IMG/VR virus record: IMGVR_UViG_3300024272_001997
Length of the DNA stretch: 64,000 nt
DNA from: a virus
Lineage: Duplodnaviria; Heunggongvirae; Uroviricota; Caudoviricetes
Reading direction: 5' to 3' (one strand)
Shown: piece after piece, positions 12,719 to 48,794 of the stretch
Numbering within the stretch: position 1 is the stretch's first letter
How the letters are laid out: each line of letters starts with the position of its first letter
Notes under the pieces: model-generated
The model's input: the letters and a program-made list of their open reading frames with translations, nothing else
Database searches by the model: none
What the model was told of the DNA's origin: nothing
Position numbers and translations under genes: made by a program

Positions 12719-12775
12719 TTGGCAAAATACACAAAATCGGGAAAAATAATTATTTATTATTTGTGCAATTTTCCT

Positions 12776-12805
12776 CTTGACAAATTGGCTGGCGGTGTGG
12801 TATAA
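12776..12805 (+). promoter_or_regulatory. orphan consensus promoter on plus strand (18-bp spacer)
   Basis: CCTCTTGACAaattggctggcggtgtggTATAAT. Confidence 0.6.
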
Positions 12806-22394: not shown

Positions 22395-22430
22395 TTATTA
22401 TATCAAAAAATTTTTTCTTTGTCAAGTTTC
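22395..22430 (-). promoter_or_regulatory. class-2 promoter TTGACA-17-TATAAT (spacer aagaaaaaattttttga) for leftward folD operon
   Basis: Near-identical inverted copy of the rightward promoter at 22509-22540. Confidence 0.55.
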
Positions 22431-22508: not shown

Positions 22509-22540
22509 TTGACAATGAAAAATTTTTCTGGTATAATAAT
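22509..22540 (+). promoter_or_regulatory. class-2 promoter TTGACA-17-TATAAT (spacer atgaaaaatttttctgg) for rightward late module
   Basis: Followed by GGAGGTAAGATAATC-ATG. Confidence 0.55.
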
Positions 22541-23664: not shown

Positions 23665-24864
23665 ATGGCCCAAGAATCTTATTACTGTGAAAAATGTAAT
23701 AGAACAATGGCGGCCGACCAGTTCTACGGTACTAATAATTTAGAAAAATATCCTGATGGTAAATTGCGCATTTGTAAGAAATGTATGACAATGCACGTAG
23801 ACAATTTCAATCCGGATACTTATTTATGGATTTTACAAGAATGCGATGTTCCATATATTCCAGAAGAATGGAATAAATTATTGGCATCATATGGTAAAGA
23901 CCGCAGTAAACTGACTGGTCTGTCAATTATTGGTAGATATCTATCAAAAATGAAATTGAAGCAATTCCGAGATTATCGCTGGGAACACACCGAGCATCTT
24001 CAAGAAGTTGCGAATAAGAAAATTGAAGAGACGATGAAGCGTCAAGGATATGACGCAGTTGAAATCGCTCAAGCTGTCGCTCAGGCGACTGTCCCCGTCC
24101 CGCAGGGCATCATCGAACAACCAAAGTATGAAGAACCTAATCCATTCTTGGCATCTGGTGAAGAAGATTATTTTTCAGAGCAAAATGGTGGTCAAGATGA
24201 CTTTGTTGATGATTTGACTGAAGAGGATAAAACCTATTTGCGTTTGAAATGGGGAAAAACTTATAAACCCGAAGAATGGGTTCGATTAGAACAGCTATAT
24301 GAAGAAATGATGGCATCATATGATATTCAAGGTGCCGGACACATCGATACACTAAAATTGGTATGTAAGACATCTCTAAAGGCGAATCAATTAATCGACA
24401 TTGGCGATATTGAAGGCTTCCAAAAGATGAGCAAAGTTTATGATAGTTTGATGAAGTCTGGTAAGTTCACCGCACAACAGAATAAAGCTGAAAGTGGTGA
24501 CTTCGTTGATTCAATTGGCGAACTAATTGAAATGTGCGAAAAACAAGGATATATTGAAAGATATTATATTGAATCTCCAAAAGATAGAGTTGATATGACA
24601 ATTGCGGATATGCAGAGATATACTAAAACTCTGGTTGAAGAAGAAACCAATTTGTCAATCATGGTTGAAAAGGCTCTACGTGATATTGAGAAAGAAGATA
24701 AGGCTGAAGCTGAAAATACTGAAGATACAATTATCGATGATATTGATTTGAGTCTTGAGGATTTGGAAAAGACCTTGAAAGATCAAGATTATGTGGATTT
24801 CCAAGACTTCTTAGATGAAGAAGCTGAAGCTGACTCTGATTACTTGAATCGAGGTAGACGGTAA
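23665..24864 (+). CDS. hypothetical protein (399 aa), N-terminal zinc ribbon, acidic C-terminus; possible small terminase or DNA-packaging accessory
   Basis: Track ORF, no TAG; sits immediately upstream of terL with ATG overlapping TAA (TAATG). Confidence 0.55.
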   Translation: MAQESYYCEKCNRTMAADQFYGTNNLEKYPDGKLRICKKCMTMHVDNFNPDTYLWILQECDVPYIPEEWNKLLASYGKDRSKLTGLSIIGRYLSKMKLKQFRDYRWEHTEHLQEVANKKIEETMKRQGYDAVEIAQAVAQATVPVPQGIIEQPKYEEPNPFLASGEEDYFSEQNGGQDDFVDDLTEEDKTYLRLKWGKTYKPEEWVRLEQLYEEMMASYDIQGAGHIDTLKLVCKTSLKANQLIDIGDIEGFQKMSKVYDSLMKSGKFTAQQNKAESGDFVDSIGELIEMCEKQGYIERYYIESPKDRVDMTIADMQRYTKTLVEEETNLSIMVEKALRDIEKEDKAEAENTEDTIIDDIDLSLEDLEKTLKDQDYVDFQDFLDEEAEADSDYLNRGRR

Positions 24865-26603
24865 TGGCTTTACAAGATTTACTTGATTTATCAACATCCC
24901 GGAGAAAGATTGGTCTTTCTCCGGAACGTGTTGAGGCTGTTATGCCTACAATACGAAAGTACATAGCCTTTTGGAGAGAATATCCTGATTTATTCGTTGA
25001 CTTTATGGTACGTGGAACTAGTACCGAAGTAAAAGATGGAGAATTCTGTTTTTATTTCTATCAAAGAGTTTTCCTTCGTTGCGTTATGAGATATTAGTAT
25101 GTGTATGCGGTTTTTCCTCGTGCATATTCTAAATCTTTCTTGACTGTTATGGCATTGATGTGCCGTTGTATTTTATATCCCAATGCTCACTTGTTTGTCA
25201 CTTCTGGTGGTAAGGAGCAGGGTGCTTCTATTCTACAAAGTAAAGTAGAAGAAATTTGTAAATTGATTCCCAGCTTTGAAAGAGAAATTGACTGGGGACG
25301 AGGTAAGACTTTAACTGGTAAAGATAAAGTCCGATATGTATTTAAGAATGGTTCTGTTCTGGATAACCTTGCGGCCCGTGAATCTACGCGTGGTCAGCGT
25401 CGTCATGGCGGCGTAATGGAGGAATGTGTTGGTATTGATGACCAAATCCTTCGCGAAGTTATTATCCCTGTTATGGCTATCTCTCGTCGTGCGAAAGATG
25501 GTACTACTAATGAAAAAGAACCTTTGAATAAATCTCAGATTTATATTACAACTGCTGGATATAAAGGAACTTATCCATATGATAGATTGATTGGTTTCTT
25601 GGTTCGTATGGTCACTCAGCCCGATCGCTGTATTGTGCTTGGTGGTACTTGGAGAACGCCAGTGGCAATGGGATTACAGAGTAAAACATTCATTACCGAC
25701 CAGAAGAATGAAGGTACTTATAATGAAGCCTCTTTCGAGCGTGAGTATGAGTCTAAGTGGTCTGGTACTGTTGAAGATGCATTCTTCAATGGAGAACATT
25801 TTACTCGTAATAGAAAATTATTACAACCTGAATATGAACATTCCGGAAGGTCTGCGGCCGGCGCTTATTATGTGCTATCAGTCGACGTAGGTCGTAAGGG
25901 ATGTGATTCTGTTGTTTGTGTATTCAAGGTGACGCCGCAGGCGCAAGGCCCTGCTATCAAGTCTTTGGTAAATATTTATACAATGGCTGATGAACACTTT
26001 GAAGATCAAGCAATTAAGCTGAAAAAACTGTTCTATAAGTATAAAGCTAGAACTCTCGTAATCGACGGTAATGGTGTTGGTTTGGGTCTAATTGATTATA
26101 TGATTAAATCTTAGAATGATGAAAATGGAGACTTCTATCCTGACTTTGGCGTTCAAAACGACGATGAAGGTTATTATAAAAAGTATAGAACAGCTAATAC
26201 TGAATATGATGCTATGTATATTATCAAGGCAAATGCGCCAATCAATACAGAGTGTCACGCAAACGCACAAAGCCAACTTGCGGCCGGTAAGGTAAAATTC
26301 TTGATTGATGAAAGAACAGCAAGAGAAAAATTACTGGGAACCGCAAAAGGTTAGAAAATGAAGCCTGAGGAAAGGGCAGAATACCTTCAACCATTTACCC
26401 TAACTTCCATATTGAAAGAGGAAATGATGAATTTGCGTGAAGAAAATGAAGGCATAAATATCATTTTGAAACAAGCAAATCGTGGAATTAGGAAGGATAA
26501 GTTTTCTGCGTTTGAATATGGTTTGTATTATATAAAACAAGAAGAAGATAAAAAGAAGAAGAAAAAGAGATTTAACGCTGCTGATTGGGCGTTTTATAAT
26601 TAA
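24864..26603 (+). CDS. terL: terminase large subunit (about 579 aa) with 3 in-frame TAG codons (25098, 26112, 26352)
   Basis: Three same-frame track ORFs joined by TAG; N-terminal ATPase-like region (VFPRAYSKSF) and C-terminal RNaseH-like nuclease (YYVLSVDVGRKG...LVIDGNGVG). Confidence 0.7.
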
Positions 26604-26614
26604 GGAGGGTTGAC

Positions 26615-26971
26615 ATGAGAGCATCTCGCGGTGAGATTAAGATTGAAGAAATCTTAAAAGAAGCTGAGCTTACTTTTAAGATGGAATATATCTTCCCTGA
26701 CTTAAAGAGCCCCAATGGTCGCCCTTTAAGATTTGATTTTGTCGTTTTTGATGATGATGGTAAAATTGATTTTATTATTGAATATCAAGGAAAACAGCAC
26801 TATGAACCAAGTGCGAAGTTCGGTGGTAAAAAAGGATTTTATCAACAGCAATACAATGATAATCAAAAGCGACGCTTTTGTGCTTTACATGATTTTCGTT
26901 TAATTGAAATACCATATACAGATGAAAACTTGATCTCTTATGACTATATCATGAAATTAGCAGGATATTAA
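26615..26971 (+). CDS. putative PD-(D/E)xK-like (DUF559/Vsr-like) endonuclease, 118 aa, TAG-free
   Basis: Track ORF; RFDFVVFDDDGKIDFIIEYQGKQHY resembles REase-like core; between terL and portal, a common homing-endonuclease site. Confidence 0.45.
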   Translation: MRASRGEIKIEEILKEAELTFKMEYIFPDLKSPNGRPLRFDFVVFDDDGKIDFIIEYQGKQHYEPSAKFGGKKGFYQQQYNDNQKRRFCALHDFRLIEIPYTDENLISYDYIMKLAGY

Positions 26972-26985
26972 AAGGAGGTGGAGTT

Positions 26986-28584
26986 TTGGATAAGTTAACT
27001 AGACAAGAAGAAATTCGTGCCAAAGGTTTTGACATGGGTGGAACTACCTATGGTAAAATTAAAATTGGAACTAAAACACTTGAAGATGCCGTTTTGAATT
27101 TAGGTTCAATTCAAAAGGAAACTAGAAACATCATCAATAAAGGCGTTATTTATCGTGCGCTTGCGGATAATGATGTTGAGAAGTTAAGAGAGATTTCTAA
27201 TTACTTCTATAAGACCAGCGGTATCTATCAAAGAGTATGTAATTATTTCGCTACTATGTATCGTTATGATTGGTATGTTGTTCCAGAAGTATACGATGAA
27301 AGTATCAAAGAAGAAAAGATTGTTGGAGATTTCCATAAGGTCTTGAACTTCTTAGATAATTCATATGTCAAAAAAGTTTGCGGTGATATGGCTCTTGGCG
27401 TTATCAAGAATGGCGCTTATTATGGATATATCGTTCCCACCTCAAAAGGAATTATTATTCAAGAGTTGCCTGTAAATTATTGCCGTTCTCGTTTTAGTTT
27501 GAATAATTTACCAACTGTTGAGTTCAATATGAAGTTTTTTGATGTTATGTTCCCAGATACTGGATACAGAATGAAAGTATTGAATTTGTTCCCAGAAGAG
27601 TTCAAGAAGGGATATGCTGCTTACAAGAGTGGTAAGTTACTTCCTGAAAGTCCATGGGATAGAGATAGTGGTTGGTATTTGTTGGACCCAGAGAAAACCG
27701 TGAAATTTAGTTTTAGTAATGGTGGATTCGGCGGTGTCGATTTACCATTATTTATCAATGCGATTCCTCTTATTTTGGATTTGGATGCGGCTCAGGATTT
27801 GGATCGTAGAAAGCAAATGCAAAAGTTATTGAAAATTGTAGTTCAGAAACTCCCATTAGATAAAAATGGTGATTTGATTTTTGACGTCGATGAAGCAAGA
27901 GATATTCATAATAATGCTGTTTAGATGTTGAAGCGTGCGGTTGGTGTTGACGTATTGACTACTTTCGCTGATATTGAAAGTATTGATATGTCTGATAAGA
28001 ATACTACTACTACTCAAGATGACTTGATGAAAGTTGAGCGTAGTGTATATAATGCTTTTGGTGTTCCGCAAAGTTTATTTAACTCTGATAGTAATTTAGC
28101 AATGAATTTATCTGTGCTAAATGATGAAGGTGCGGTCCGCACCTTGTTGCTACAATTTGGTGTTTTCTTTGATAGACTAACACAGAATTTTGGTGCGAAT
28201 AAAAAGAAATACAATTTTAGATTCTATATGCTTGAGACTACTCAGTATAACTACAAAGAGTTGTCTAAGATGTATAAAGAATGTGTTCAGTTAGGATATT
28301 CTAAGATGTTGCCTCAAATTGCTTTAGGCCATTCTCAGAGTGCTATCTTGAATACTGCTTACTTTGAAAATGAAGTTTTACATTTGAGTGAAGTTATGAT
28401 TCCTCCGCTGATGTCTTCTACTATGAATATGCAAGACTTAAAGGGCAATTCTAATCAAACTCAAACTAACAAAACTCAAACTAAATCAGGAGGATAGTCT
28501 TCTGAGAAGTCTGCGGGCCGACCGGAGAAACCAGACAATCAAAAGAGCGATAAGACTATCCAAAATAAAGAATCTATGAGCTAA
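26986..28584 (+). CDS. portal protein candidate (about 532 aa), TTG start, 2 in-frame TAGs (27922, 28495)
   Basis: AAGGAGGTGGAGTT-TTG; two same-frame track ORFs joined by TAG; position after terL. Confidence 0.55.
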
Positions 28585-28595
28585 GGAGGAGCAAG

Positions 28596-30122
28596 ATGCA
28601 TACAAGTATTAAGTTAGATACACCTGTTGAGTTTATCAACATTACTCCTCTCAATCCTTTGATTTCTAAATGTCAGATTAAGGTGTGCTACGTAAGCGAT
28701 GAACCAAATCGTAACCGTAGTATCATCACCAAAGAAGTTGCAAAGCAAATGGCTAATTCATTGCCAGGATGCCCTATCGTTGGTTTTTATAATGAAGATA
28801 AGGGCGACTTTGAGGAGCACAATCGTATCATTGATATTTCCAATGGAAAGTTCGAGATCAAGGATACTACTCGCCCATACGGTTTCGTTGATTTGAGTGC
28901 GAAAGTTTGGTTCCAAAAGTTCTTGGATGATGGAATGACTGAGCGAGAGTATATGATGACTGAGGGCTGGTTATGGACCGGCCAATATCCAGAGTGCCGC
29001 AGAATCCTGGCACATGGAAATAATCAATCCATGGAATTGGATGAAGGTACATTAGATGCTCATTGGTCAAAAGATGGTAATGGAGATCCCAAATTCTTTA
29101 TTATCAATGAAGCAATTATTTCAAAACTTTGTACTCTTGGTGAAAGTAATGAACCCTGCTTCGAGGGTGCCAACATTACTGCACCTACCATTCAATTCGC
29201 TTTTGAAGATGGCTTTAAAGAGCAACTATTCTCTATGATGAACGAATTGAAAGAATATTTGAATAAAGGAGGAGAAAAAGTGTTTACTAGATATGCTGTT
29301 GAAATCGGTGACGCTTTATGGACCGCTCTTTATAGTCGCGTTGAAGATGCTTACGTTATTGAGAGCGTATGTGAAGATGGTGAGCAGAAGTTCGCTGTTG
29401 TTACTGCCGATGATAAGTATTACCGTTTAGATTTCTCCATCGCTGAAGACGGCGTAATTGAGTTCGCTGCTGAACCTGTTTTGATGGAAGAGTATACTCC
29501 ATCTGAAGAGCCTCAGTTTGATCCTGTCGCTGTTGATGAATATGCCAAGTCTAAGAAGGCCGCCAAGAAGGATGAAGATGATGACGAGCCTGAAAAGAAA
29601 GATGGCGAAGGCGAGGAAGAAAAGTGCCCTAAGTGCGGCAAGCCTAAGTCTGAGTGTGAATGCGAAGACGAAGATGACGACGATAAAAAGAAAAAGGGCA
29701 AGAAAGAAAAATACAATCTTGATGAAATTCAAGAATATGTAGAGCTAAGCTCCAAATATTCTGACTTGGAGACTAATTATAATGCTGCTCAGGAAAAAAT
29801 CGCTGACCTAGAAGCTCAGATTGGTGAGTTGACTGCATTTAAGAAGTCCATTGAAAAGGCAGAAAAAGAGAAAATGATTGACAGTTTCTATATGCTGTCT
29901 GATGATGACAAGAAGGATGTTATTGAGAACATCGATACTTATTCTCTGGATGATATTGAAGCTAAGCTATCAATTATTTGTGTTCGCAACAAGGTCAGTT
30001 TCAACCTTGATGATGATAAGAACAATGGCGTAACCACCTATAATTTGGATGGTGGAGTTCCTGCGGACGAGACTGTTCCCGCTTGGATTAAAGCCTTGCG
30101 TTCTGTTGCGAGTGAAATGTAA
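28596..30122 (+). CDS. scaffolding / prohead-maturation protein candidate (508 aa), TAG-free
   Basis: Track ORF; acidic low-complexity linker, CPKCGKPKSECEC motif and C-terminal coiled coil. Confidence 0.5.
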   Translation: MHTSIKLDTPVEFINITPLNPLISKCQIKVCYVSDEPNRNRSIITKEVAKQMANSLPGCPIVGFYNEDKGDFEEHNRIIDISNGKFEIKDTTRPYGFVDLSAKVWFQKFLDDGMTEREYMMTEGWLWTGQYPECRRILAHGNNQSMELDEGTLDAHWSKDGNGDPKFFIINEAIISKLCTLGESNEPCFEGANITAPTIQFAFEDGFKEQLFSMMNELKEYLNKGGEKVFTRYAVEIGDALWTALYSRVEDAYVIESVCEDGEQKFAVVTADDKYYRLDFSIAEDGVIEFAAEPVLMEEYTPSEEPQFDPVAVDEYAKSKKAAKKDEDDDEPEKKDGEGEEEKCPKCGKPKSECECEDEDDDDKKKKGKKEKYNLDEIQEYVELSSKYSDLETNYNAAQEKIADLEAQIGELTAFKKSIEKAEKEKMIDSFYMLSDDDKKDVIENIDTYSLDDIEAKLSIICVRNKVSFNLDDDKNNGVTTYNLDGGVPADETVPAWIKALRSVASEM

Positions 30123-30149
30123 TAAAAACTAATAAGGAGGAAAATAGAA

Positions 30150-30968
30150 ATGCTTAGAGAATTATTGAAGAAGCATATTAAGTCTCAGGCAGAGTTCGTA
30201 GAAGTCGGCTACGGTCAGGTTGAACCCAACCACCTAAGCGCTCAGAGAACTGCTCAGATTTATGCTCAGTTGCCTGCTGATCCTGCTATTAAGGTTCTAG
30301 AGCAGGGACAGTTTGTTAAGTATGACTATGCAGCTGGCCTTGTAAACTTTACTGGTGCAGGCGAGTGGATGCTTGTTTATAACGAAATCAAGTTGTATCG
30401 TGAGCATCAGTTAGATTGCGAGTTCGCAATGTTAAAAGACAATTATCAGGCTCGTGTTTATAGCCCATTGGATCACACCAAGCCTGAGGAGATGTACGGT
30501 CCTACCCGTTTCATGAACGGCGTAAGAGAGCGTTATAATCCTACTACCGGCGCTTTCGAGCAGTTGGATGAAATCAAGAATCCTGAGACTGGCGAAGTTG
30601 CTGATTACAGCGTTATTTCTAGCGTACATGACTACTATGAGATGAACGACATCAACAATCCTGAAATCGAGGGAGACGCTCGTAAGAGATTGTTCATGAA
30701 GTTGCGTGATTACCAGGAGAAGATGATGCCCGCAGGTACTACTATGGTTCCTCGTGTATTCAAGACTAATGTTGGTGACCACTACACTACCAACCTAATC
30801 CATGCTGAACCCGGCTCTTTGAAGGAGTTCGATCTATTGGCTCCTCGTGCTGCCGATGGTATCTTAGAGCCTGTTGCTGATGCTTCTGGCGATATGGTAT
30901 GGCAGGTTGCTAAGGTTTACACTATGCCTGACCACCAGCCTGGTGTCAAGGTTATTAGAATTAAGTAA
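30150..30968 (+). CDS. structural protein (272 aa), TAG-free
   Basis: Track ORF; GGAGG RBS; highly expressed-type codon usage. Confidence 0.55.
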   Translation: MLRELLKKHIKSQAEFVEVGYGQVEPNHLSAQRTAQIYAQLPADPAIKVLEQGQFVKYDYAAGLVNFTGAGEWMLVYNEIKLYREHQLDCEFAMLKDNYQARVYSPLDHTKPEEMYGPTRFMNGVRERYNPTTGAFEQLDEIKNPETGEVADYSVISSVHDYYEMNDINNPEIEGDARKRLFMKLRDYQEKMMPAGTTMVPRVFKTNVGDHYTTNLIHAEPGSLKEFDLLAPRAADGILEPVADASGDMVWQVAKVYTMPDHQPGVKVIRIK

Positions 30969-30987
30969 TTGAAAGGAGAGAAGTATA

Positions 30988-32127
30988 ATGGCTTTAGATA
31001 AGAAAAATTTAGTACAGCTGGCAAAGACTGTAGCAAAAGCTGACCCTTCTGCTCCTGTTTCTTACAGCTTCAATGGCGAAAGTTTTAACTATGAGACTCT
31101 AAATGAGACTCTACGCCGTGAATTCAATGAGATTGCTGGTACTTACGCTTTGTATCGTGAGAACAAGCACCTGATCTTCGCAGTTATCGAAGAGACTATG
31201 GACGAGGTTCTGCCTAAGAAGGTTGAGCAGGCTTATATGCAGTTTGCTGAGACCAAGCAGTTCGCTCAGGGCGACAAGCCTATTTTCCGTCGTAAGAGAG
31301 ACGTTCGTCAGCGCGCTAAGCAGTTCGTAACTCGCGTTGGTCTAGCAGGTATTTACGAAGTCTTCAAGCTAGGTCCTAGTGAAGAAGAGAGCTTCGAAGT
31401 CCGCACTAGCGCCATCGGTGGAGCTGCTCAGATCGGCTTCGAAGAGTTCTTGGATGGACGTGTTGACTTCGCTGAAGTAACTAATATCGTCATGGAAGGC
31501 ATGAACGAGTTGATCATGAAGGAAGTTGGTCATGCACTAGCTGCTTCTATCAATCAGTTGCCTCCTGCTAATATCGCTGTTGTTAATGGTTTCGACGAGC
31601 AGGAATTCGATCGCTTGTTGGTTATCGCTTCTGCTTACGGTGAGCCTACCATTTACTGCACTTACGAGTTTGCCGTAAAGATGGTTCCTACCGAGGGTTG
31701 GAGATACACTGAGTCCATGAAGCAGCAGTTGTGGGATACTGGTCACTTGGCTACTTACAAGGGACGTAAGGTTGTTATTCTACCCCAGGGCTTAGAGGAT
31801 GAGACCAATATGCGCAAGGTAATCAATCCTGGTTACTGCTACATCATCCCCGCTGGTGCTGACACCAAGCCTGTGAAGATTGCTTTCGAGGGTAATACCA
31901 TTGTTGACGAGTTCAATAACTATGACCGTTCTCGTGATATTCACGTCTATAAGAAGGTCGGCGTTCTAGCTATGTTGGCTAACAACATCTGCGCTTACGC
32001 TGATGCTAGCTTGTTGGGTCAGATGGATATTGCTGGCTCTGTTTGGGATAGCACTGCTTATGTAAGTGAAGTTAAGGCTTATGCTGAGTCCACTTACAAT
32101 CCTAACTACGAGTTCCCAAAGGTTTAA
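30988..32127 (+). CDS. major capsid protein candidate (379 aa), TAG-free
   Basis: Track ORF after scaffold; GGAGAGAAGTATA-ATG; followed by the strongest terminator in the window. Confidence 0.6.
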   Translation: MALDKKNLVQLAKTVAKADPSAPVSYSFNGESFNYETLNETLRREFNEIAGTYALYRENKHLIFAVIEETMDEVLPKKVEQAYMQFAETKQFAQGDKPIFRRKRDVRQRAKQFVTRVGLAGIYEVFKLGPSEEESFEVRTSAIGGAAQIGFEEFLDGRVDFAEVTNIVMEGMNELIMKEVGHALAASINQLPPANIAVVNGFDEQEFDRLLVIASAYGEPTIYCTYEFAVKMVPTEGWRYTESMKQQLWDTGHLATYKGRKVVILPQGLEDETNMRKVINPGYCYIIPAGADTKPVKIAFEGNTIVDEFNNYDRSRDIHVYKKVGVLAMLANNICAYADASLLGQMDIAGSVWDSTAYVSEVKAYAESTYNPNYEFPKV

Positions 32128-32152
32128 TTTAATATAAAATAATTAGTTTAGA

Positions 32153-32190
32153 GGGGGAAGAGGGGATATCCCCACTTCCCCCTATTTTTT
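32153..32190 (+). terminator. rho-independent terminator after capsid gene
   Basis: GGGGGAAGaggggatatccccaCTTCCCCC followed by TATTTTTT. Confidence 0.75.
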
Positions 32191-32215
32191 ATTATGAGAA
32201 AAAGGAGATAATACA

Positions 32216-32800
32216 ATGGCTATTTTTAATGTAAAGAACAGAGGTGCTAGTTGGGTCACCTATAAGATTCCAGAAGACGGAATCCGCAGAAGTTTTGCTC
32301 CCGGCGAAGTAAAGAAAGTTAGCGATGTTGAATTGGAAAAGCTAACTTATCAGCCTGGTGGTATGGTTATTCTTTCCCAGTTCCTTCAGATTCAAGACGA
32401 AGTTGCTCTAAGAAATTTGAATATTCGTACTGAGCCTGAGTATCATATGAGCGAAGCAGATGTTGCTGCTTTGATTAGAACTGGTTCTTTAGATGCTTTC
32501 TTAGATGCTCTTGATTTTGCTCCAGCTGGAGTTATTGATTTGATCAAGAAGTTGAGCTTGGAAATTCCTCTAATGGATTTGGGTAAGAGAAAGGCTTTGA
32601 AAGATAAGACTGGTCTTGATGTCGATGCTGCTCTAAAGAACAGAGAAGCTGAGAAGGAAGACGAGAATGGTGGAAATACCATCCTAAAGCAGACTGAGCG
32701 TAGAGTGAAGACTGAGGAAGTCGCTCCTGGTCGTCGTACCACTACTCCTAAGTACAATATTATTAAGACAGAGCCAGCAGCTGATAAAGCTACTGAATAA
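32216..32800 (+). CDS. structural protein (194 aa), TAG-free
   Basis: Track ORF; AAAAAGGAGATAATACA-ATG. Confidence 0.55.
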   Translation: MAIFNVKNRGASWVTYKIPEDGIRRSFAPGEVKKVSDVELEKLTYQPGGMVILSQFLQIQDEVALRNLNIRTEPEYHMSEADVAALIRTGSLDAFLDALDFAPAGVIDLIKKLSLEIPLMDLGKRKALKDKTGLDVDAALKNREAEKEDENGGNTILKQTERRVKTEEVAPGRRTTTPKYNIIKTEPAADKATE

Positions 32801-32822
32801 TAAAATATAAGGAGGCAATTAT

Positions 32823-33401
32823 ATGACATTATTTTCGTCTGTCTATAATCGCTTTCTTGGACAAGTTACCGATGACCTCTATCTAGAGCTCACTCCAGAA
32901 GATACATTAAGAGATTTACAAAATCTTTTGCTTAATGCAATTCCGGGTTTTGAATTTCCTAGACAAAATCTTTATGATTATACTCTTAATTTGACAGAAA
33001 AGCTGGAAAGTGATGTAACCCCTGATGAATTTATTTTAGGTACTATCTGGGGTAATTTAGATGGAGAATTATTAGAAACTCCTAAAGTCCTAGTAGATAA
33101 TTCACATTTTAATGTTGAACTTACTGCTGAGGAAATTAATATCTTGGCGCTTTTAATGAAACAAGGTTGGGTTCAGCGTCAAGTAACTTCAATTGAAAAT
33201 ACTCGTATGAAATATAGTGGAAGCGATTTTAAAATGACTTCTCAAGCTAATCATTTATCTAAGTTATTAGCTTTGTTAGAAGAGAGTCGAAGAGATTCTT
33301 TCCATATGCAAAGACTATATAAGCGTCGTAAATTTACGGCCGATGGTAAATATGCCTCCAACTGGGGCAGTTTAATGGAGACTAGTGCTCTTGATTACTA
33401 A
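32823..33401 (+). CDS. head-completion/adaptor candidate (192 aa), TAG-free
   Basis: Track ORF; AAGGAGGCAATTAT-ATG. Confidence 0.55.
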   Translation: MTLFSSVYNRFLGQVTDDLYLELTPEDTLRDLQNLLLNAIPGFEFPRQNLYDYTLNLTEKLESDVTPDEFILGTIWGNLDGELLETPKVLVDNSHFNVELTAEEINILALLMKQGWVQRQVTSIENTRMKYSGSDFKMTSQANHLSKLLALLEESRRDSFHMQRLYKRRKFTADGKYASNWGSLMETSALDY

Positions 33402-33700
33402 GTATGGTTTTGAATTTCGTGTGTATGATATTGAAGTAAATGTTCGTCGCTTAACCAACCAATTATGGAAGCTAATTCCAATGCGCGAACACGAAGAAGA
33501 TTGGCTGAAACAATTAGATACAGTAACTATTGAGATTGCGGGACTGAATGAAATTTTTACAGGCCCGCAATTTTTACAGATGTTATGTAAATTAGAGGGA
33601 TTAAAGACCTAGGAAACAGAATTTGAGCTATATCGCAAAACTGTGTTTGAATGCATTAGTTTATTGTAGGAGCTAAACCATGGCATCAGGTTATGATTTA
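33391..33700 (+). CDS. hypothetical protein (about 103 aa; TTG or GTG start; 2 TAGs)
   Basis: Frame +1 relative to previous gene; GGAG 10 nt before TTG; reads through TAG at 33610 and 33676 to TGA. Confidence 0.3.
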
Positions 33701-34726
33701 AGTAGTCAAATCCCTTTTAGATTGATGAAAGGCCGATTAGGAGTTTATGATAAAAGAAAGTTTGATCCAAAGAAGAGTGGGGTTGATGGAGTTCTTCATC
33801 AATCAGCTCGTATGGGACAAGCTGGCGGTAATCTATAGCAAGAGCGAATGATTAAAGATAAACGTCGTTCTTTAGACCATGCGGTTTGGTATTCTTATCA
33901 AGGTGCAAAAGTTATTCCTGTAGATGCGAGCGATCGGACGCCGATCCGCGCACTTATCAATCCGAATAAGTTGAAAATGGATTATGATGATAAAATTATT
34001 TCAGTGGGCTATGAATATAACTTTGCTCCTGGAACGGTTTTTGAGTGGGTTGGTACAGGAACTTATTGGATTGTACAATTACAAGATTTAACTGAATTAG
34101 CTTATTTTCGTGGAGATATAAGAAGATGCCGTTATGAAATTGCTTGGGAAGATGAAAACGGTAAGCATAAAACTTATGCGGCTGTTAGAGGTCCCGTTGA
34201 AACGAAAATCAATTATATTCAAAAGCATGGAATAAGTGTTGATACTCCTAATCTTTCGCTGAATCTTTATTTACCATTAAATGAAGATACAAAAAATTAT
34301 TTCAAACGTTATTCTAAATTTTATTTGTAGAATGATGATACTTGTTGGCGTGTTGAAGCTCTTGATTGGATTTCTACTCCTGGTATTTTAGAGATTGCCG
34401 CAGTTGAATATTATGCAAATGAATTTGAAGATGATGTTGAAAATGGTGTTGTAGATGGATTAATTGAAGAAATTCCAGATCCAAATGTAGCTGGTGGTAA
34501 GATTATTGGTGATACCTTCATTAAAATTAGACAACCTGCTGTGTTTAAATTTGATGGTAATATTGGAGCAGTCTGGGAAGTGGATAAAAAATATCCTGTG
34601 ACCTTAGATATTGATAAAGATGATCCTCGTATAGTAGTAGTTACCTGGGAAGGATCATTCAGCGGTTAGTTTGAATTGAGATATTCAAAATATAGTAAGA
34701 CTATTGTAGTAGAATCTCTATTTTAA
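33680..34726 (+). CDS. structural protein (about 348 aa) with 3 in-frame TAGs (33836, 34331, 34667)
   Basis: GGAG then ATG at 33680; track ORF 33848..34330 is its middle fragment; ends TAA. Confidence 0.5.
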
Positions 34727-34752
34727 GAACTAAGAGTAAAAGGAGTGTTTAT

Positions 34753-35343
34753 ATGAAAATTGAAACTTATACATATCCTAAGTCTAGTTTTTTAGCTTTA
34801 GAAAAGGATATGGGTATTATTGTTTAGATGATTATGAAAAATGATCGTTTAAAGAAAATGCTTTATTACACAACCAAGGATTGTTTAGATAGACCAAAAC
34901 TAACTAAAATGTAGACCAATAGTTTATTTGGAGAGCAAATAAAAATTGTTCCAAAATTATATATAGATCATTCTGTATTAAATTATATTATCGTTAGTTT
35001 TGATAATTTTGTACCAAATCGTACTAATCCAGAATTTAGAGATAATATTATTGAATTTGATATTATTTGTCATTATGATCAATGGCATATGAAAGATTTT
35101 GAATTGCGTCCATATAAAATTGCAGCAGAATTAGATTCTATGTTTAGTGAATAGCATTTAACTGGCATTGGTAAATTAGAATTTAATGGTGCTAATCAAA
35201 TTTTACTTACCGATGAATATGCTGGTTTATGTATTACTTTTAGAGCAATCCATGGAGAAGAAGATAAAAAATTTATGCCGAATCCAATGGATGAAGAGGC
35301 ATTTATTGAGAACTTTAATGCAATTTTTAATGAGGATAAATAA
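34753..35343 (+). CDS. structural protein (about 196 aa) with about 4 in-frame TAGs
   Basis: AAAAGGAGTGTTTAT-ATG; continuous frame to TAA at 35341-35343. Confidence 0.5.
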
Positions 35344-35345
35344 TT

Positions 35346-36071
35346 ATGGATACTAGATTAGCTCTAATGTGTGGAGCTGATTATCCAGTTCCAGAATTAT
35401 AGATTACAGTTCATTAGCCTCAAATAAAAGAAATTGCATATATTGGGGAGACAGATTTTTTCTCAGGAGTTCAATGTTTGTGTTTGAATAAATCTATGTT
35501 TGTAAAGGACGAAAGTGATTTACTCAATACGAGCAACTTTTAGATATTTATGACGATAATGTCAGAAAAAGAAGCGGCAGATAAAAAAAGAGCTGTTTAG
35601 CAAGTTTGTTCTTTGTTTTTTCCAAAACATAGATTGCTGATGACACCACGCTCTGTGCTATTAAGTGATGGCTCAGCAAATATTCAAATTGATGAAACTA
35701 ACTTTGAATTTTTACAAAATGCTATATCAACTATTTGCTGTTTAAAAACTGGCCCTATGGATCAGACAACTTTCAATCCCGCAGATGCTAAAGCGAGAGA
35801 GATCGCTGAAAAACTTATGCGAGGACGTTAGAGAGTTGCGGCTCAAAAGGGCGAAACTAACACAAGTATATTTAGCCAATATCTTTCAATCATTACTGTA
35901 GGACTACATTCAATGTCTCTACAAGACGCGACTGAATTGACCATGTTCCAATTATACGATTTAGTTGAAAGATATATGCTATATATTAATTGGGATATGG
36001 ATATTCGGTCTCGGTTGGCTGGCGCAAAGCCGGATTCTTAGCCGGATAACTGGATGAAAAATATCCACTAA
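35346..36071 (+). CDS. structural protein (about 241 aa) with about 8 in-frame TAGs
   Basis: ATG overlaps previous TAA (TAATTATGG); track ORF 35613..35831 is an internal fragment; ends TAA at 36069-36071. Confidence 0.5.
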
Positions 36072-36094
36072 TATTTTTAAGGAGGATACTACCT

Positions 36095-37147
36095 ATGAAA
36101 TTTGGCGTTCGCGAAATTTGTGATGTCGTTCTAAAGGCAAAGGCCGCTCAGAAGGTTGGTAATAAAGTCTTCTATAAGAATGAGCCTGTTATTTATTTCG
36201 ACACTTTGAAGACTTCCAGCATGGAAGGTACTGCTACTACTTCTTACGCACAGGGCGGTCGTGGTAACTCTCGTCTAATCGCTTGGGAAGGTGAGAGAAC
36301 TGTTACTTTCACTATGGAAGATGCATTGATCTCTCCCGCTGGCTTCATGATTCTATCTGGTGCTGGCTTGGTTGAGGCTACTTCTAAGAACACTCTAAAG
36401 GTTCACACTACTGAGCAGACTAATAAGGTTAGAGTTGAAGGTACTGAAGTTCAGATTGTTTTGACTCAAAAGCCTTACGTTGGTAAAATGAATGCTGATG
36501 GTGCTTTAGTTGGTGCTCATGAAGATTTAATTTATGTTATGAAGTTAGATAATGGCGAAGTTGCTACTGAACCATATATTCCTGATCACAATGCTGTTAC
36601 CGCTGTTGTCTTTGATGAAGAGAGCGATTGGTATGCACCTATGGCTGATGGTACTTCTGAAGACGAGGCCGATGGTTGGATGATTGTATTGAATGGTGCC
36701 GCTGTCACTGGCGCAAGACCTTCTCGTGAAGCTAACCCTGGTTTTGATGAAGTAAATGTATTTGCTAACGAAGATGTCGTATTGGTCGACTATTATGTTG
36801 AACACGCATCTGCCGCACAGCAGATTGAGATTACTCCCGACAAGTTCGGTGGTAACTACTACTTAGAGGCTTCTACTCTATTCCGTGATACTAACGGTGT
36901 TGATATGCCTGCTGAGTTCATCATTCCTAACTGCAAGATTCAGTCTAACTTCACTTTCACCATGGCTTCTTCTGGTGATCCATCTACTTTCACCTTCACC
37001 ATGGACGCATTCCCAGACTACACTCGCTTCGATCCTACTAAGAAGGTTCTAGCTGCTATCCAGATCATCCAGACTGGTAACGCTGCTGAAGTCGGAGCAC
37101 GTACTCGTACTTCTCACGATCCTGCTCACGAGAAGTATTTGATGTAA
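36095..37147 (+). CDS. major tail (tube/sheath-like) protein candidate (350 aa), TAG-free
   Basis: Track ORF; AAGGAGGATACTACCT-ATG; followed by strong terminator. Confidence 0.55.
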   Translation: MKFGVREICDVVLKAKAAQKVGNKVFYKNEPVIYFDTLKTSSMEGTATTSYAQGGRGNSRLIAWEGERTVTFTMEDALISPAGFMILSGAGLVEATSKNTLKVHTTEQTNKVRVEGTEVQIVLTQKPYVGKMNADGALVGAHEDLIYVMKLDNGEVATEPYIPDHNAVTAVVFDEESDWYAPMADGTSEDEADGWMIVLNGAAVTGARPSREANPGFDEVNVFANEDVVLVDYYVEHASAAQQIEITPDKFGGNYYLEASTLFRDTNGVDMPAEFIIPNCKIQSNFTFTMASSGDPSTFTFTMDAFPDYTRFDPTKKVLAAIQIIQTGNAAEVGARTRTSHDPAHEKYLM

Positions 37148-37170
37148 TTTACAATTAAATAACTTTTTAG

Positions 37171-37203
37171 GGGAGAGATAAGAAATTATCTCTCCCCTTT
37201 TTT
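37171..37203 (+). terminator. rho-independent terminator
   Basis: GGGGAGAGATAagaaaTTATCTCTCCCC followed by TTTTTTGTTTT. Confidence 0.7.
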
Positions 37204-37231
37204 GTTTTATCCGGAGAGAAAGGAGAAAATA

Positions 37232-38557: not shown

Positions 38558-38562
38558 AATTT

Positions 38563-38592
38563 GACTCGCTCAAATTTTTTTGATATAATATA
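38563..38592 (+). promoter_or_regulatory. class-2 promoter TTGACT-17-TATAAT
   Basis: TTGACTcgctcaaatttttttgaTATAAT, near-identical to 48727-48756. Confidence 0.5.
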
Positions 38593-38619: not shown

Positions 38620-39159
38620 ATGGCAAAAATTCCATTTTCTAAACTTGATATGAAAATCAATTCTCGTGATTTTGTTATGTGTCACGAAAATTCAAAGGGA
38701 GAAGTTATCCAGTATGAAGTAAAAAACTATCTTCCTATTAAAGAAAAAATGGATTTAGTTTCTCGTATTATTAATCAGTCTACTGATGATAATGGTTTCT
38801 ATAATCCTATGAGAGTAAAGTTATATACTACTTTAGAAATGGTATATACTTATACTAATTTAACTTTCACTCCAAAGCAGAAAGAAGATCCTTTTAAATT
38901 GTATGATTTATTAGTAAGTACCGGTTTATATAATGATATTACTAGTCATATTTGTACTGAAGATTTAGAGGAATTGGAAGGAAGTATTTGGGATACTATT
39001 AAAAGTATTTATAATTATCGTAATTCTGCTATGGGTATTTTAGAAAATATTACTGCAGATTATAGTAATTTAAATTTAGATGCAACTGAAATTCAGAGTA
39101 AGTTAGCTGATCCAAATAATATGGCTTTATTAAAGGATGTATTGGCTAAATTGGGCTAA
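38620..39159 (+). CDS. tail assembly chaperone candidate (179 aa), TAG-free
   Basis: Track ORF immediately upstream of tape measure gene. Confidence 0.45.
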   Translation: MAKIPFSKLDMKINSRDFVMCHENSKGEVIQYEVKNYLPIKEKMDLVSRIINQSTDDNGFYNPMRVKLYTTLEMVYTYTNLTFTPKQKEDPFKLYDLLVSTGLYNDITSHICTEDLEELEGSIWDTIKSIYNYRNSAMGILENITADYSNLNLDATEIQSKLADPNNMALLKDVLAKLG

Positions 39160-39204: not shown

Positions 39205-39245
39205 TCGCCGGTTAGATTATTTCAATCTAACCGGCTTATTTTTAT
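39205..39245 (+). terminator. terminator/attenuator hairpin
   Basis: GCCGGTTAGATTatttcaATCTAACCGGC followed by TTATTTTTATTTT. Confidence 0.55.
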
Positions 39246-39283: not shown

Positions 39284-42200
39284 ATGGCTAAACAGTTAAA
39301 TGTAGATTTGCGATTTACGGCAAGTAATACACAAGCTAAACAGCAAATCCAAGATTTACAAAGTGCTTTAAATAATTTAATGACTACTGCAAGTAAAAAT
39401 ACCACAGGCCTTGGTATTACTAAAGATATAGCTTAGGCAACTAATGAAGTCGCTAAATTATAGGCAATGTTAGAGTCTTCTAAAAATGCATCTGGTGGTT
39501 TAGATTTAGGTAAATTTAATCAGAGCTTAAGTTAGGGACAAACAAAAATTTCTGATTATGCCAGAACTCTAAGTTCTTTAGGTCCATAGGGAGATCAAGC
39601 TTTTGCTAAATTAGCAAAAGCAATTATTAACGCTGAAGTTCCTTTAAAAAGAACAAATAGTGTATTAAAAGAATTTAAAACTTCTCTTATGAATACTGCT
39701 AGATGGCAATTGTCTTCTAGTATGTTACATGGTTTTATGGGAGCGGTACAATCTGCCTATGGTTACGCGCAAGATTTAAATGAATCTTTAAATAATATTC
39801 GTATTGTTACTGGAGCAAATATTGATGAAATGTCACGATTTGCAAAAGAAGCTAATGCGGCAGCTTAGGCTTTAAGCACAACTACTACAGAATATACTAA
39901 CGCTTCTTTGATTTTTTATCAATAGGGTTTAAGTGATGAAGAAGTTGCCAAGAGAACAGAAGTAACTGTAAAAATGGCAAATGCCGCAGGTGAAAGTGCT
40001 TAGAAAATTTCTGATCAATTAACTGCTGTTTGGAATAACTTCTATGACGGTTCCAAATCTTTGGAATATTATGCTGATGTTATGACTGCTCTTGGTGCAG
40101 CAACTGCATCTAGTACTGATGAAATTGCAGGCGGTTTAGAAAAGTTTGCGGCAATTGGTTAGACTATTGGTTTAAGTTATGAATATGCTGCTTCTGCATT
40201 AGCAACTATTACTTCTAACACTCGTCAAAGTGAAGAAGTTGTTGGTACTGCATTAAAAACTATTTTTGCACGTATTCAAGGTTTAAATTTAGGTGAAACT
40301 CTTGAAGATGGAACTTCTTTAAATAAATATTCAGAAGCTTTATCAAAAATTGGAATTAGCATTTTTGAGTAGAATGGCGAAATCAAAAAGATGGATAACA
40401 TTCTAAATGAAATGGCTGAAAAATGGGGAACTTTAGCGAAGGATCAACAAATTGCTTTAGCATAGACTGTTGCTGGCGTTCGTCAATATACTTAGCTAAT
40501 TGCTTTAATGGATAACTGGAATGCTGGAGATTCTGATAGTATGACAGCTAACTTAAATACTGCTTATAATGCCACTGGCACTTTACAAGAACAAGCAGAT
40601 ATTTATGCAGAATCTTGGGAAGCTGCAAAAGATAGAGTTACTGCAGCGGCAGAAGAAATTTATAACCAATTATTGAACGATGAATTTTTTATTGATTTAA
40701 ATAATGGTTTTGCAGGTTTCTTAAATATTATCTCTGATACTATCGACACTCTTGGTGGATTACCTGGAGTACTTACTGTTGCATCTAGCCTCATGATTAA
40801 AATGTTTGGTAAAGATATGGCAAAAGCGATTGATGATTGGGGATATAATATTAAATTGCGCTCTAAAGAGGGCGTTTAGTCTTTAATGGAGCTTAGAGAG
40901 CAAGCAAAAAATTCTTTAAAAACAATGTATGCAGATAATGTAGACACTGGTCCTATAAATTCTGCATCTCAAATTGCTTTCAGTGAATATGCTTCTTTAA
41001 CAGATGTAGTATTAGCAAAACAAAAAGAATTAACTGCTCAAGGTTAGATGCTTTCAGAAGAAAATCAAAAGCAAGTTCAATATTTATTACAAGCAAATGA
41101 AGCATATGGAGAGCAAGCAATTCTTGCTGCAAAATCTTTAGAGGCAGCTGAACAGTAGACTCGAGAAAATGAGATGCAATTAAGATATGCTGTTTAGAAG
41201 CAAAATACAAAAAATCCTGAAGACAAAAAAGTTGATTTTAAAACAACTTTAAAACCTCAGATTGATGAAGCTCAAAAAGCTTAGATGTAGTATTCTTCTT
41301 TGTATGATGTTTTTTTGAAATTAAAACAATTACAAAATAAAGGTTTAGATAGTGCAACAATAATTAAAGAACTGACTGAAATGAGTAATTAGGCTAAAGC
41401 GGCAGGCCTTGATATTTCACATTTTGATGCCATTTTACACTCTTTAAATAACGGAGATAGCGTAGTAGTTACTTTAAATGCAATTGAAAGCAATTTAGAT
41501 GATCTTGCATTGGAAGCTTTAAATACTGCAGAAACTGTTAAAAATTCTTTAACTGGAATGGGAATGGATGGCACTCAAGTTGATGCAATTCTTGATTAGT
41601 TAATTGAATCTTGGAGACAGCAAGGTATTGTTACTGCGGATTTAGCAGAAAAATTAAAAAATATAAAAGTTAATGGAGATGCTGCGGCAGAAGCTATTAG
41701 TGGAATGCAAGGTCCTCCACCAACTGTCGGCCAGAAATTTATGGCAGTTGCAAATACAATTAGTAATATTGCTATGAGTATTAATGTAGTAAAAGGATTA
41801 ATTGATACTTGGAATAATGAAGATATGAGTTTTGGAGAGAAATTACTTTCCACTTTTACATCTCTTGGAATGGTTATTCCAATGGTTACAACTGCTTTTA
41901 CTGGAAACAATCTTGCAATGTTAGGTAGTGTTTCTTCTTCTATTGTTGCAGCAGCAGGTTTTGATGGTGTTGCTATTTCTGCAAAAGTTGCTGCAGGTGG
42001 TGTTGGAGCATTGTGGGCAGCTTTATGGCCTATTGCATTAGTAGTTGCAGGCTTGACGTTAGTAATTACTGCATTAGCAGCTGGAGTAAAATATTTATCT
42101 GATGAATATAATAAAGATGCTATTGCTGCTAACAAAGCTGCTGAAGCAGCAAATAATTTGAAAGAAGCATATGAAGAAACTAAGAAATCTTATGAAGATA

Positions 42201-48200: not shown

Positions 48201-48673
48201 CCCGCCGCAACCGGTTGGATGAAAAAGGATTTGATCCCGAAGAAATCCAGCGTATTGTTGATATTACTAATCCTAATGGAGATTGGCGTACTCGTTATGG
48301 AATTTCTGACTTAAGTAAGTATGCTTATTCTAGTTTTGATACTGGTGGTTATACTGGAGCTTGGGGTTCTTATGGTAAGTTCGCTATGTTACATGAAAAA
48401 GAATTGATTTTGAATCCAGGTGAAACTGAAAACTTTTTAGCAAGTATGGAAGTATTGCGTAGTATTATCAAGATGATTGACTTACAAAGCACTGCTTCTC
48501 AGCTAGGTGGATTGTTACATAGTCCTGGATATTACGCTCCTCAAACTTCTGAGGTATTAGAGCAAAATGTTCATATTGAAGCTAGCTTCCCTGAAGTAAC
48601 TGATAGATATGAAATTGAAGCTGCTTTGACTTCTATCGTCAATCGTGCTTCTCAATACGCTAACCGTAAATAA
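39284..48673 (+). CDS. tape measure protein, single 9390-nt frame (3129 aa) with at least 35 in-frame TAGs
   Basis: All 10 track ORF fragments (40508, 41705, 42551, 43703, 45011, 45965, 46175, 46574, 46841, 47939) share frame 2 with the ATG at 39284; no TAA/TGA for 9.4 kb; Ala/Gln/Leu-rich helical repeats; Ser/Gly linker at about 47990-48110 then a globular C-terminal domain. Confidence 0.8.
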
Positions 48674-48679: not shown

Positions 48680-48713
48680 GGGTAGGTTGTAGAAATACAA
48701 CCTACCCTTTTTC
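48680..48713 (+). terminator. rho-independent terminator after tape measure
   Basis: GGGTAGGTTGTagaaaTACAACCTACCC followed by TTTTTC. Confidence 0.7.
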
Positions 48714-48726: not shown

Positions 48727-48756
48727 TATAAAAAATTGACTTTTCTAAATTTTTAT
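48727..48756 (+). promoter_or_regulatory. class-2 promoter TTGACT-17-TATAAT
   Basis: TTGACTtttctaaatttttatgaTATAAT then AGAGAGAAAGGAG leader. Confidence 0.5.
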
Positions 48757-48794
48757 GATATAATAGATTATAAGAGAGAAAGGAGATATTGGTT

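Follow-up and report, generated by a model that had tools for sequence, protein, structure and literature searches.

The question raised by the DNA examined here is why certain genes of a phage that translates the stop codon TAG as an amino acid contain no TAG at all. The window, by which we mean the whole 64,000-nucleotide stretch that was analysed (IMG/VR record IMGVR_UViG_3300024272_001997, Caudoviricetes), carries on its + strand a late structural module in which long open reading frames (ORFs) appear only when TAG is taken as sense. In an original prediction made from these letters, nine genes of the module, starting at 28596, 30150, 30988, 32216, 32823, 36095, 38620, 54400 and 60588, were said to be free of TAG and to be the highest-copy structural genes. 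Zero in-frame TAG codons were indeed counted in all nine. The avoidance of TAG is conserved in the genes of the predicted major capsid protein (g8, at 30988) and tail tube protein (g15, at 36095), which are expected to be of high copy number, and in g7 (at 30150); it did not extend to the genes at 28596 (g6) and 32823 (g10), which bear TAG in relatives, and the three small genes at 38620 (g17), 54400 (g20) and 60588 (g23) proved uninformative. As argued below, the pattern is probably the result of ordinary selection for efficient translation, in which TAG would be the costliest glutamine codon and would have been purged from the genes of highest flux.

Recoded late modules in which TAG is translated as glutamine (genetic code 15) have been described previously (Ivanova 2014; Yutin 2021; Borges 2021/22, doi 10.1101/2021.08.26.457843; Peters 2022, PMC9523058). 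In the window, the late module occupies 22.5-64 kb (from 22,478) at a regional GC content of ~33%, and 25 genes (g1-g25) were called in it by using strong AAGGAGG ribosome-binding sites. With TAG as a sense codon, its ORFs reach 3130 codons (39284-48673). Among the 24 complete late genes, translation stops at TAA (22) or TGA (2), and TAG terminates none. Moreover, the in-frame TAGs of terL, the portal gene and others are spanned by full-length matches to PHROG profiles or to proteins of the annotated Bacillus phage Kirov; the PHROG matches comprise terL, portal, a homing endonuclease (g4) and a sigma-like protein, g1 (phrog_5767). When the TAG columns were aligned with relatives that are not recoded, Gln was found in 116 of 254 columns, with Glu (34) and Lys (21) next in frequency; of the TAG columns that belong to the window itself, 13 of 20 had Gln. 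The closest described relative is phAss-1 (OQ749652), a member of a 'Caudoviricetes code 15 clade' with a capsid protein 46% identical to that of the window; it was reported to read TAG as Gln, to carry three tRNA-Sup(CTA) genes and to have interrupted terL, portal, tape measure and fibre genes (PMC10607447). Because the long ORFs need TAG as sense, because the TAG columns align to Gln, and because the suppressor tRNAs of phAss-1 are predicted to insert Gln, the late genes of the window can be taken, on sequence grounds, to read TAG as glutamine. Nucleotide searches with both halves of the window against a phage collection gave no match. By protein homology and gene order, the window appears to be part of a ~180-200 kb gut siphovirus related to phAss-1 and to SPbeta/Kirov-like phages; large siphoviruses of the SPbeta-, EF1- and Kirov-like kinds are related to it more distantly.

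The distribution of TAG over the late module was assessed relative to all glutamine-like codons (TAG, CAA and CAG together). The module contains 90 TAG among 542 such codons. Besides the nine genes listed above, zero in-frame TAG was found in g2 (23665), g4 (26615) and the partial g25 (63173); against these 12 TAG-free genes, 4.2 were expected, and when the TAG labels were shuffled among the glutamine-like codons, none of 20,000 permutations reached 12. In g6-g10 and g15, TAG accounted for 0 of 62 glutamine-like codons (Fisher P = 1.2e-5). Taken singly, every TAG-free gene of the window had a probability of zero TAG between 0.08 and 0.58 (0.08 for g8, 0.16 for g15). For g17, g20 and g23, which hold 15 glutamine-like codons combined, this probability was 0.15, and for g17, with only 4 glutamine codons, it was 0.48; these three genes are therefore uninformative for TAG avoidance, and chance is the default for them. 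When the TAG-free genes are read in either of their other two frames, the trinucleotide TAG is as dense as usual, and its lack is therefore an effect of the reading frame and not of the DNA. The proteins expected to be made in few copies had been described as saturated with TAG, which was an overstatement: in the terL, portal, tape measure and fibre genes TAG makes up only 8-29% of the glutamine-like codons. The share rises up to 50% in small connector genes.

Next to these counts stands a comparison with relatives. The capsid protein was used as a query to collect 53 loci from IMG/VR and 61 from genome bins, of which ~10 kb was kept on each side, and orthologues of g1-g17 were mapped in these loci with TAG read as Gln. 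The recoded genomes that show the pattern (~60) span 37-92% capsid identity. About one third of all relatives were not recoded at all; the recoded set was defined as the 58 distinct genomes with at least 10 TAG in the region. In these 58 genomes, g7, g8 and g15 together contained 30 TAG in 50,214 codons (0.60 per 1000), whereas 12 other genes contained 2,788 TAG in 187,831 codons (14.84 per 1000). The TAG share was lower in g7/g8/g15 than in the other genes in all 58 recoded genomes, and the ~25-fold effect was present in every lineage sampled. Orthologues with zero TAG were found in 50 of 58 genomes for g8, 50 of 56 for g7 and 38 of 44 for g15, and the remaining 8 capsid and 6 tube genes carried 1-6 TAG (maxima of 4 and 6, respectively). 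In the most heavily recoded relative, there were 24 TAG in terL and 21 in terS, and none in g7, g8 or g15. The g9 gene was intermediate, with zero TAG in 36 of 52 recoded relatives and TAG at 0.07 of its glutamine-like codons there.

The other TAG-free genes of the window behaved differently in the relatives. At least one TAG was present in g6 of 54 of the 57 recoded relatives, and TAG was present in g10 of 49 of the 52; in the heavier-recoded relatives these two genes carry 1-8 TAG. Likewise, g2 and g4 bear TAG in nearly all recoded relatives and g17 in 26 of 39, and terS, terL (n = 51), portal (n = 57), g1, g12 and g14 were TAG-free in no recoded relative. The TAG share was 0.17 in the window versus ~0.34 in the relatives. 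Because g6 and g10 carry TAG in nearly all recoded relatives, the contiguous TAG-free 'island' at 28596-33401 is a feature of the lightly recoded window genome, and the conserved TAG-avoiding core consists of g7, g8 and g15, and partly of g9. Overall, TAG usage was graded, increasing from g7/g8/g15 through g9, g6/g13/g17, terL and portal to g12/g14/tape measure, and in the relatives it reached 0.42-0.57 of the glutamine-like codons in g11, g12, g14 and the tape measure gene. In the same collection, recoded and non-recoded genomes interleave when ranked by the similarity of their capsid protein to that of the window: recoding is present at 88% identity, absent at 85% and light at 81%, and both kinds of genome occur at 72%. 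TAG recoding would accordingly have been gained or lost repeatedly in this single clade of ~180-200 kb gut phages.

The three core genes also differ from their neighbours at codons that do not encode glutamine. A more GC-rich, CAG-using codon choice had been ascribed to all nine TAG-free genes. It was confirmed for g7, g8 and g15, and in part for g6 and g9, but not for g10, g20 and g23. In g7, the glutamine-like codons were 0 TAG, 0 CAA and 13 CAG, with a GC content at third codon positions (GC3) of 0.47, NNC of 0.52 and AAG of 0.94; in g8, which has the strongest codon bias of the late module, they were 0 TAG, 0 CAA and 14 CAG (GC3 0.49), and in g15 they were 0 TAG, 1 CAA and 9 CAG. The g6 gene (0 TAG among 12 glutamine-like codons) showed an intermediate bias (GC3 0.38), g9 had zero TAG but only 5 glutamine codons, and g10 (0 TAG, 7 CAA, 1 CAG; GC3 0.23) was without codon bias. 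In g17 GC3 was low (0.17), although all 4 glutamine codons were CAG. For g7, g8 and g15 combined, the shares within two-fold families were 0.80 for TTC, 0.67 for CAC, 0.83 for TGC, 0.90 for AAG and 0.97 for CAG; within four-fold families they were 0.73-0.78 for GCT, ACT and CCT and 0.56-0.62 for GTT, GGT, TCT and CGT. ACA, ACG, GCG, CCG, GGG, TCA, TCG, ATA, AGG, CGA and CGG were unused. This codon set is a signature of translational selection that runs through many codon families, and it is not a uniform shift in GC content.

Two codon dialects are found within one genome, in addition to that of the core genes. The early region (positions 1-22,400, minus strand) comprises ~40 small genes, each with a Shine-Dalgarno sequence 5' of it, at 42-50% GC; its genes have a GC3 of 0.57 and favour CTG, CCC, ACC, GTC and TCC, and the low-copy late genes have a GC3 of 0.21 and favour TTA, CAA and AAA. 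The codon set of g7/g8/g15 avoids CTG, CCC and ACC, which the GC-rich early genes favour. On account of this difference between the codon sets, we rejected the notion of a GC-rich island that is foreign DNA or resembles the early genes. Within the late module of the window, TAG was non-uniform, as the original prediction had implied, and its share was negatively correlated with codon bias. Three indices that are independent of glutamine (C- over T-ending two-fold codons, the share of AAG, and T- over A/G-ending four-fold codons) gave rho values of -0.51 to -0.64 against the TAG share among the 24 late genes, and down to -0.75 among genes with at least 10 glutamine-like codons.

The same bias was seen in the same genes of recoded relatives and of phAss-1. 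Moreover, in 19 non-recoded relatives, the CAG share was 0.55-0.74 in g7, g8, g9 and g15 (0.74 in g9) versus 0.18-0.40 elsewhere, and the codon bias therefore predates recoding. Avoidance of TAG is not merely a by-product of the preference for CAG, as TAG remained low where CAA is tolerated: in 22 recoded genomes with a CAA-rich capsid gene, TAG/(TAG+CAA) was 0.044 in g7/g8/g15 versus 0.42 elsewhere. Nor was mutational opportunity lacking, since each of the 36 CAG codons in g7, g8 and g15 of the window is one C-to-T transition away from TAG. A preferential origin of TAG at CAG positions was also considered and found unsupported, in that the TAG columns align to CAA and CAG at 83:33, approximately the background ratio.

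Gene identities were examined with profile hidden Markov models, which were built from the window proteins and their orthologues and searched against the annotated proteins of phage Kirov. Ten of 16 tested window genes matched syntenic Kirov proteins (E = 3e-6 to 5e-95), and the gene order, terS-terL-portal-protease-x-major capsid protein ... tail terminator-x-tail tube ... tape measure, is the same as in Kirov (SPbeta/Kirov-like module). On account of profile homology and full synteny with annotated Kirov, g8 is identified as the predicted major capsid protein and g15 as the predicted tail tube protein, in agreement with the functions first proposed for them. For g8, tblastn matches were to annotated capsid genes of Bacillus phages, and a weak NCBIfam match was to an HK97-fold capsid family (E = 0.007). 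The product of g6 had been taken for a scaffold protein; its Kirov match is instead to a 'putative prohead protease', and it contains an acidic linker and a coiled-coil-like C-terminal part. In the region between the TAG-free blocks, g13 matches the Kirov tail terminator (E = 1e-9) and g14 matches Kirov gp42. Sequence searches of Pfam, NCBIfam and PDB with g6, g7, g9, g10 and g17 yielded nothing usable, g7 being without a match. AlphaFold2 models were too poor for fold searches (mean predicted local distance difference test score 45.7 for g8 and 54.4 for g15), the alignments being shallow (63-90% identity). The N- and C-terminal parts of g15 are invariant among orthologues and flank a variable central insertion (residues ~92-245), which is the only confidently predicted region and forms a beta-rich domain in the model. 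This insertion may be a surface decoration domain.

The most biased genes are thus the homologues of capsid and tail tube genes, for which high copy numbers are expected from virion architecture. A genome of ~180-200 kb implies several hundred to ~1000 capsid subunits, and a tape measure protein of 3129 residues implies a tail of ~450 nm, which would take several hundred tube subunits; for portal, connectors, tape measure and fibres, 3-18 copies are expected. Codon statistics, their conservation across relatives and gene identities by homology are established here from sequence; translational cost is probably what keeps TAG out of these genes. Decoding of TAG needs a suppressor tRNA, which the phage presumably encodes, and release factor 1 is probably a competitor. 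TAG would then be selected against in proportion to the translation that a gene receives, such that it would be purged from the genes of the major capsid protein, the tail tube protein and the co-expressed g7, which would also be optimised in all other codon families, and low-copy genes (terminase, portal, connectors, tape measure, fibres) would drift to TAG, which occupies 8-50% of their glutamine positions. This account, in which the cost would scale with translation flux, fits the graded order of TAG shares. The cost itself would lie in yield, in speed, or in truncated products, as truncated subunits of polymerising proteins could poison assembly. The g7 product, too, would be a high-copy protein. 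The suggestion that suppression is inefficient and that abundant proteins therefore avoid TAG received support, which is indirect: it comes from the conserved avoidance in the capsid, tube and g7 genes, from their having the strongest codon bias in recoded and non-recoded relatives alike, from TAG being avoided even in genomes where these genes tolerate CAA, and from the graded usage.

Several observations weigh against this account. Neither the 64 kb window nor 39 further loci (including 10 kb past the window start) yielded any tRNA gene, and thus no suppressor tRNA. Competition with release factor 1 would leave a bias in the base following TAG (+4); the window showed a weak one (P = 0.02), which ten relatives failed to reproduce (P = 0.26). 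Also, the relatives are phylogenetically non-independent, and the pooled P values (1e-52 to 1e-89) are inflated accordingly. The genome bins of the related contigs are of many different taxa, mostly Clostridia. Finally, a tail tube family of crAss-like phages has been reported to prefer TAG, the opposite of the tube gene described here, and the rule is not general to recoded phages.

Chance, in the sense that short genes with few glutamine codons merely happen to lack TAG, is compatible with the individual probabilities and with the combined probability for g17, g20 and g23 given above, but 12 TAG-free genes in place of 4.2 and a pattern repeated in 58 of 58 recoded relatives leave it almost no probability as a general explanation, and for g7, g8 and g15 it is refuted. 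An arrangement in two expression tiers, the other possibility raised at the outset, was considered both as a matter of transcription and as a matter of timing. Strong intrinsic terminators had been reported behind the capsid and tail tube genes. Both are present, and the intergenic region containing the capsid terminator has a folding energy of -27.9 kcal/mol, a value that none of 200 shuffled sequences attained; terminators of equal strength also stand behind g17, g20 and the TAG-rich tape measure gene. These extra terminators, together with the promoter-like sites 5' of g17 and g19, suggest that the late module is divided into several units, and a probable effect of the terminators behind g8 and g15 is a higher dosage or stability of the 3'-proximal messages, those of capsid and tube. 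No strong promoter-like site was found 5' of g6, g7 or g15, and the intergenic gaps are only 11 nt (g5-g6), 27 nt (g6-g7), 19 nt (g7-g8) and 23 nt (g14-g15), g14 itself holding 6 TAG. The gaps thus leave no room for separate promoters, and the TAG-free genes share transcripts with TAG-containing ones, so that a separate transcription tier for TAG-free genes is not supported. A tier in time would require only that the TAG-free genes be translatable before, or without, the code switch, for instance to pre-build procapsids and tail tubes, with the TAG-containing genes gated until suppressor tRNA has built up, a form of regulation modelled by Borges et al. It is true that code 11 and code 15 yield the same protein from each TAG-free gene, all stops being TAA or TGA, that published models have TAG gating late and lysis genes, and that the terminators after g8 and g15 indicate differential mRNA dosage. 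However, g7, g8 and g15 are without a transcription unit of their own, and the TAG-bearing portal, terL and g14 lie upstream in the same packed runs; the portal, which is needed to nucleate the procapsid, carries TAG in 57 of 57 relatives. A gate also demands strictly zero TAG, and the occasional TAGs in the capsid and tube genes of relatives fit quantitative selection better than an absolute gate. Timing moreover leaves unexplained the bias at other codon families and its presence in non-recoded relatives. We therefore regard a temporal tier as unlikely.

Two further readings concern the origin of the contrast between the genes. If TAG were positively selected in low-copy genes, each TAG would lower the yield of full-length protein and so set virion stoichiometry within shared operons. 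Its share does rise stepwise opposite to expected copy number, tightly packed shared operons would make translational tuning useful, and the share reaches the high values noted above in g11, g12, g14 and the tape measure gene of relatives. The number of TAG per orthologue, however, varies widely (3-24 in terL, 1-16 in portal) and is zero throughout the 19 non-recoded relatives, whose gene order is the same, and stoichiometry therefore does not require TAG; relaxed selection with AT-biased drift fits the pattern equally well. Such tuning by TAG, with none in capsid and tube as an unthrottled class, few in portal and terminase, and dozens (36) in the tape measure gene, seems improbable to us. 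If it were true, recoding would control stoichiometry as well as timing, and TAG counts would serve as an in silico readout of suppression efficiency. Recent horizontal acquisition of the TAG-free, GC-richer genes from a non-recoded phage of different composition is very unlikely. In its favour, g7 and g8 have a GC content of 45-46% versus ~33% in the rest of the late module, and the identity of g15 to its relatives does not track that of portal (rho 0.09). Nevertheless, the orthologues of g7, g8, g9 and g15 keep their place in every relative as well as in phAss-1 and Kirov; the identities to relatives rise and fall with those of portal for both g7 (rho 0.73) and g8 (rho 0.87); the identity pattern of g15 resembles that of its TAG-rich neighbours g12 and g14; and the codon bias is the same in every lineage. 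Transfer is thus improbable because the genes are syntenic and co-inherited and because their codon set is distinct from that of the early genes. Selection for efficient translation remains the reading that we favour.

The coordinates of the genes and signals discussed here are collected in Table 1.

Table 1. Genes and transcription signals of the late structural module, with positions in the window.
Feature	Position	Strand	Basis or remark
g2, terS	23665 (start)	+	Kirov terS, E = 3e-29
g3, terL, 3 TAG	within 24864..28584	+	Kirov terL, E = 5e-95; PHROG terminase large subunit
g4, homing/HNH endonuclease, 118 aa, 0 TAG	26,615-26,971	+	PHROG; between terL and portal
g5, portal, 2 TAG	within 24864..28584	+	Kirov portal, E = 2.4e-38; PHROG portal
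g6, putative prohead protease homologue	28596..30122	+	Kirov 'putative prohead protease', E = 6e-47
g7, 272 aa, between protease homologue and capsid gene	30150..30968	+	syntenic Kirov gp35, E = 0.03
g8, predicted major capsid protein	30988..32127	+	Kirov major capsid protein, E = 4.6e-21
Intrinsic terminator 3' of capsid gene	32152-32193	+	GC-rich hairpin followed by ATTTTTTATT
g9, capsid-module protein, 194 aa	32216..32800	+	position in module
g10, head-module protein	32823..33401	+	homologue of Kirov gp38
g11-g14, head completion / tail terminator region, 14 TAG in 2.7 kb	33385..36071	+	between two TAG-free blocks
g15, predicted tail tube protein	36095..37147	+	Kirov tail tube, E = 2.5e-33; phrog_2729 virion structural protein
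Intrinsic terminator 3' of tail tube gene	37169-37208	+	13-bp stem with 6 GC pairs, followed by TTTTTTGTTTT
Promoter-like site 5' of g17	38,561-38,589		near-consensus, TTGACT-17-TATAAT with TG
g17, small gene 5' of tape measure gene	38620..39159	+	position; TAG-free
Terminator 3' of g17	39,207-39,235		as strong as those of g8 and g15
g18, tape measure protein, 3129 aa, 36 TAG	39284..48673	+	single ORF only with TAG as sense
Terminator 3' of tape measure gene	48,680-48,707		as strong as those of g8 and g15
Promoter-like site 5' of g19	48,736-48,764		near-consensus, TTGACT-17-TATAAT with TG
Terminator 3' of g20	54,771-54,799		as strong as those of g8 and g15

Some features outside the TAG-avoiding genes were also observed. 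The endonuclease gene g4 is kept at its position between terL and portal in all relatives, and it contains 1-4 TAG in most of the recoded ones. At the boundary between the early and late regions, two perfect TTGACA-17-TATAAT promoters, each with an upstream TG, diverge at 22,397-22,425 (minus strand) and 22,509-22,537 (+ strand); the latter precedes the sigma-factor-like g1, which itself has one TAG. In the early region, at least 20 copies of an element of 45-60 nt were found on the minus strand between 6,400 and 20,000, before nearly every small gene. Read on that strand, the element is a near-consensus sigma-70 promoter with an extended -10 (TTGACAAA, ~17 nt, TGnTATAAT), and several copies are followed by a conserved ribosome-binding block, AAGGAAAGGAACTGA (5 versus 0.26 expected). 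The set looks like an early or host-takeover promoter array. The early region also contains a duplication (8,600-9,470 and 11,630-12,790, ~3 kb apart, 75-81% identity), whose two segments encode paralogues of 130 and 125 aa, both starting MANTTSS.

The window resembles the code-15 phages described previously in that only the structural (late) genes contain in-frame TAG, with none in the early genes, in that TAA is the stop codon used most, and in that recoded and non-recoded relatives coexist. That recoding regulates late and lysis genes is an established idea in that literature (doi 10.1101/2021.08.26.457843; PMC9523058). Those studies, however, tested only for enrichment (in lysis genes and in the crAss tail tube family), and depletion in abundant virion proteins was not reported. 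In phAss-1 (proposed Phassvirus), the head module has the same order, and the capsid gene, the g7-like gene and the tube gene lack TAG and encode glutamine almost entirely by CAG (with one CAA in the tube gene), although phAss-1 represents a separate genus-level lineage without a nucleotide-level match to the window. The phAss-1 paper lists the TAG-interrupted ORFs and does not discuss why the capsid gene was spared (PMC10607447). In a 2026 preprint, the capsid gene of one TAG-recoded crAss-like phage was noted to show 'no alternative codon usage', and adaptation of capsid genes to the translational preferences of the host was suggested as the cause (doi 10.64898/2026.08.21.746148). Both the observation and the suggested cause agree with ours; the preprint concerned one gene of one genome, without statistics or relatives, and an unrelated phage order that infects Bacteroidota.

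A parallel is provided by ciliates, whose highly expressed genes contain fewer of the reassigned stop codons (PMC10553269, where comparable findings for Paramecium and Tetrahymena are cited). There, too, the under-use is found at the highest expression, is accompanied by a shift to GC-richer optimal codons, and is read as translational inefficiency. The ciliate code change is cellular, genome-wide and fixed, whereas in the phage it is conditional, operates inside a host with the standard code and affects part of the genome. We found no systematic report of such TAG depletion in phages in the literature searched. It is known in general that structural genes of phages adapt their codons to the host and that capsid and tail tube genes carry the strongest bias. 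The difference here is that the synonymous set includes a reassigned stop codon, which gives rise to apparent islands of standard code. The present case is therefore a known principle seen clearly in a new phage clade, not a new mechanism.

With respect to the biology of recoded phages, these apparent islands of standard code within a recoded module need not imply another code, another timing or foreign DNA, and code-prediction tools that proceed window by window may mislabel them. Genes that are TAG-free and strongly biased could, conversely, flag the major virion proteins of unannotated recoded phages, with g7 being a candidate. If translation of TAG is costly as proposed, introducing TAG into the capsid gene should lower burst size. 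Taken together, the comparative evidence from ~60 genomes suggests that TAG read as glutamine is still costly in phages that have adopted it and that TAG is kept out of the proteins that are made most, and models in which recoding acts purely as a regulatory 'code switch' should be adjusted.

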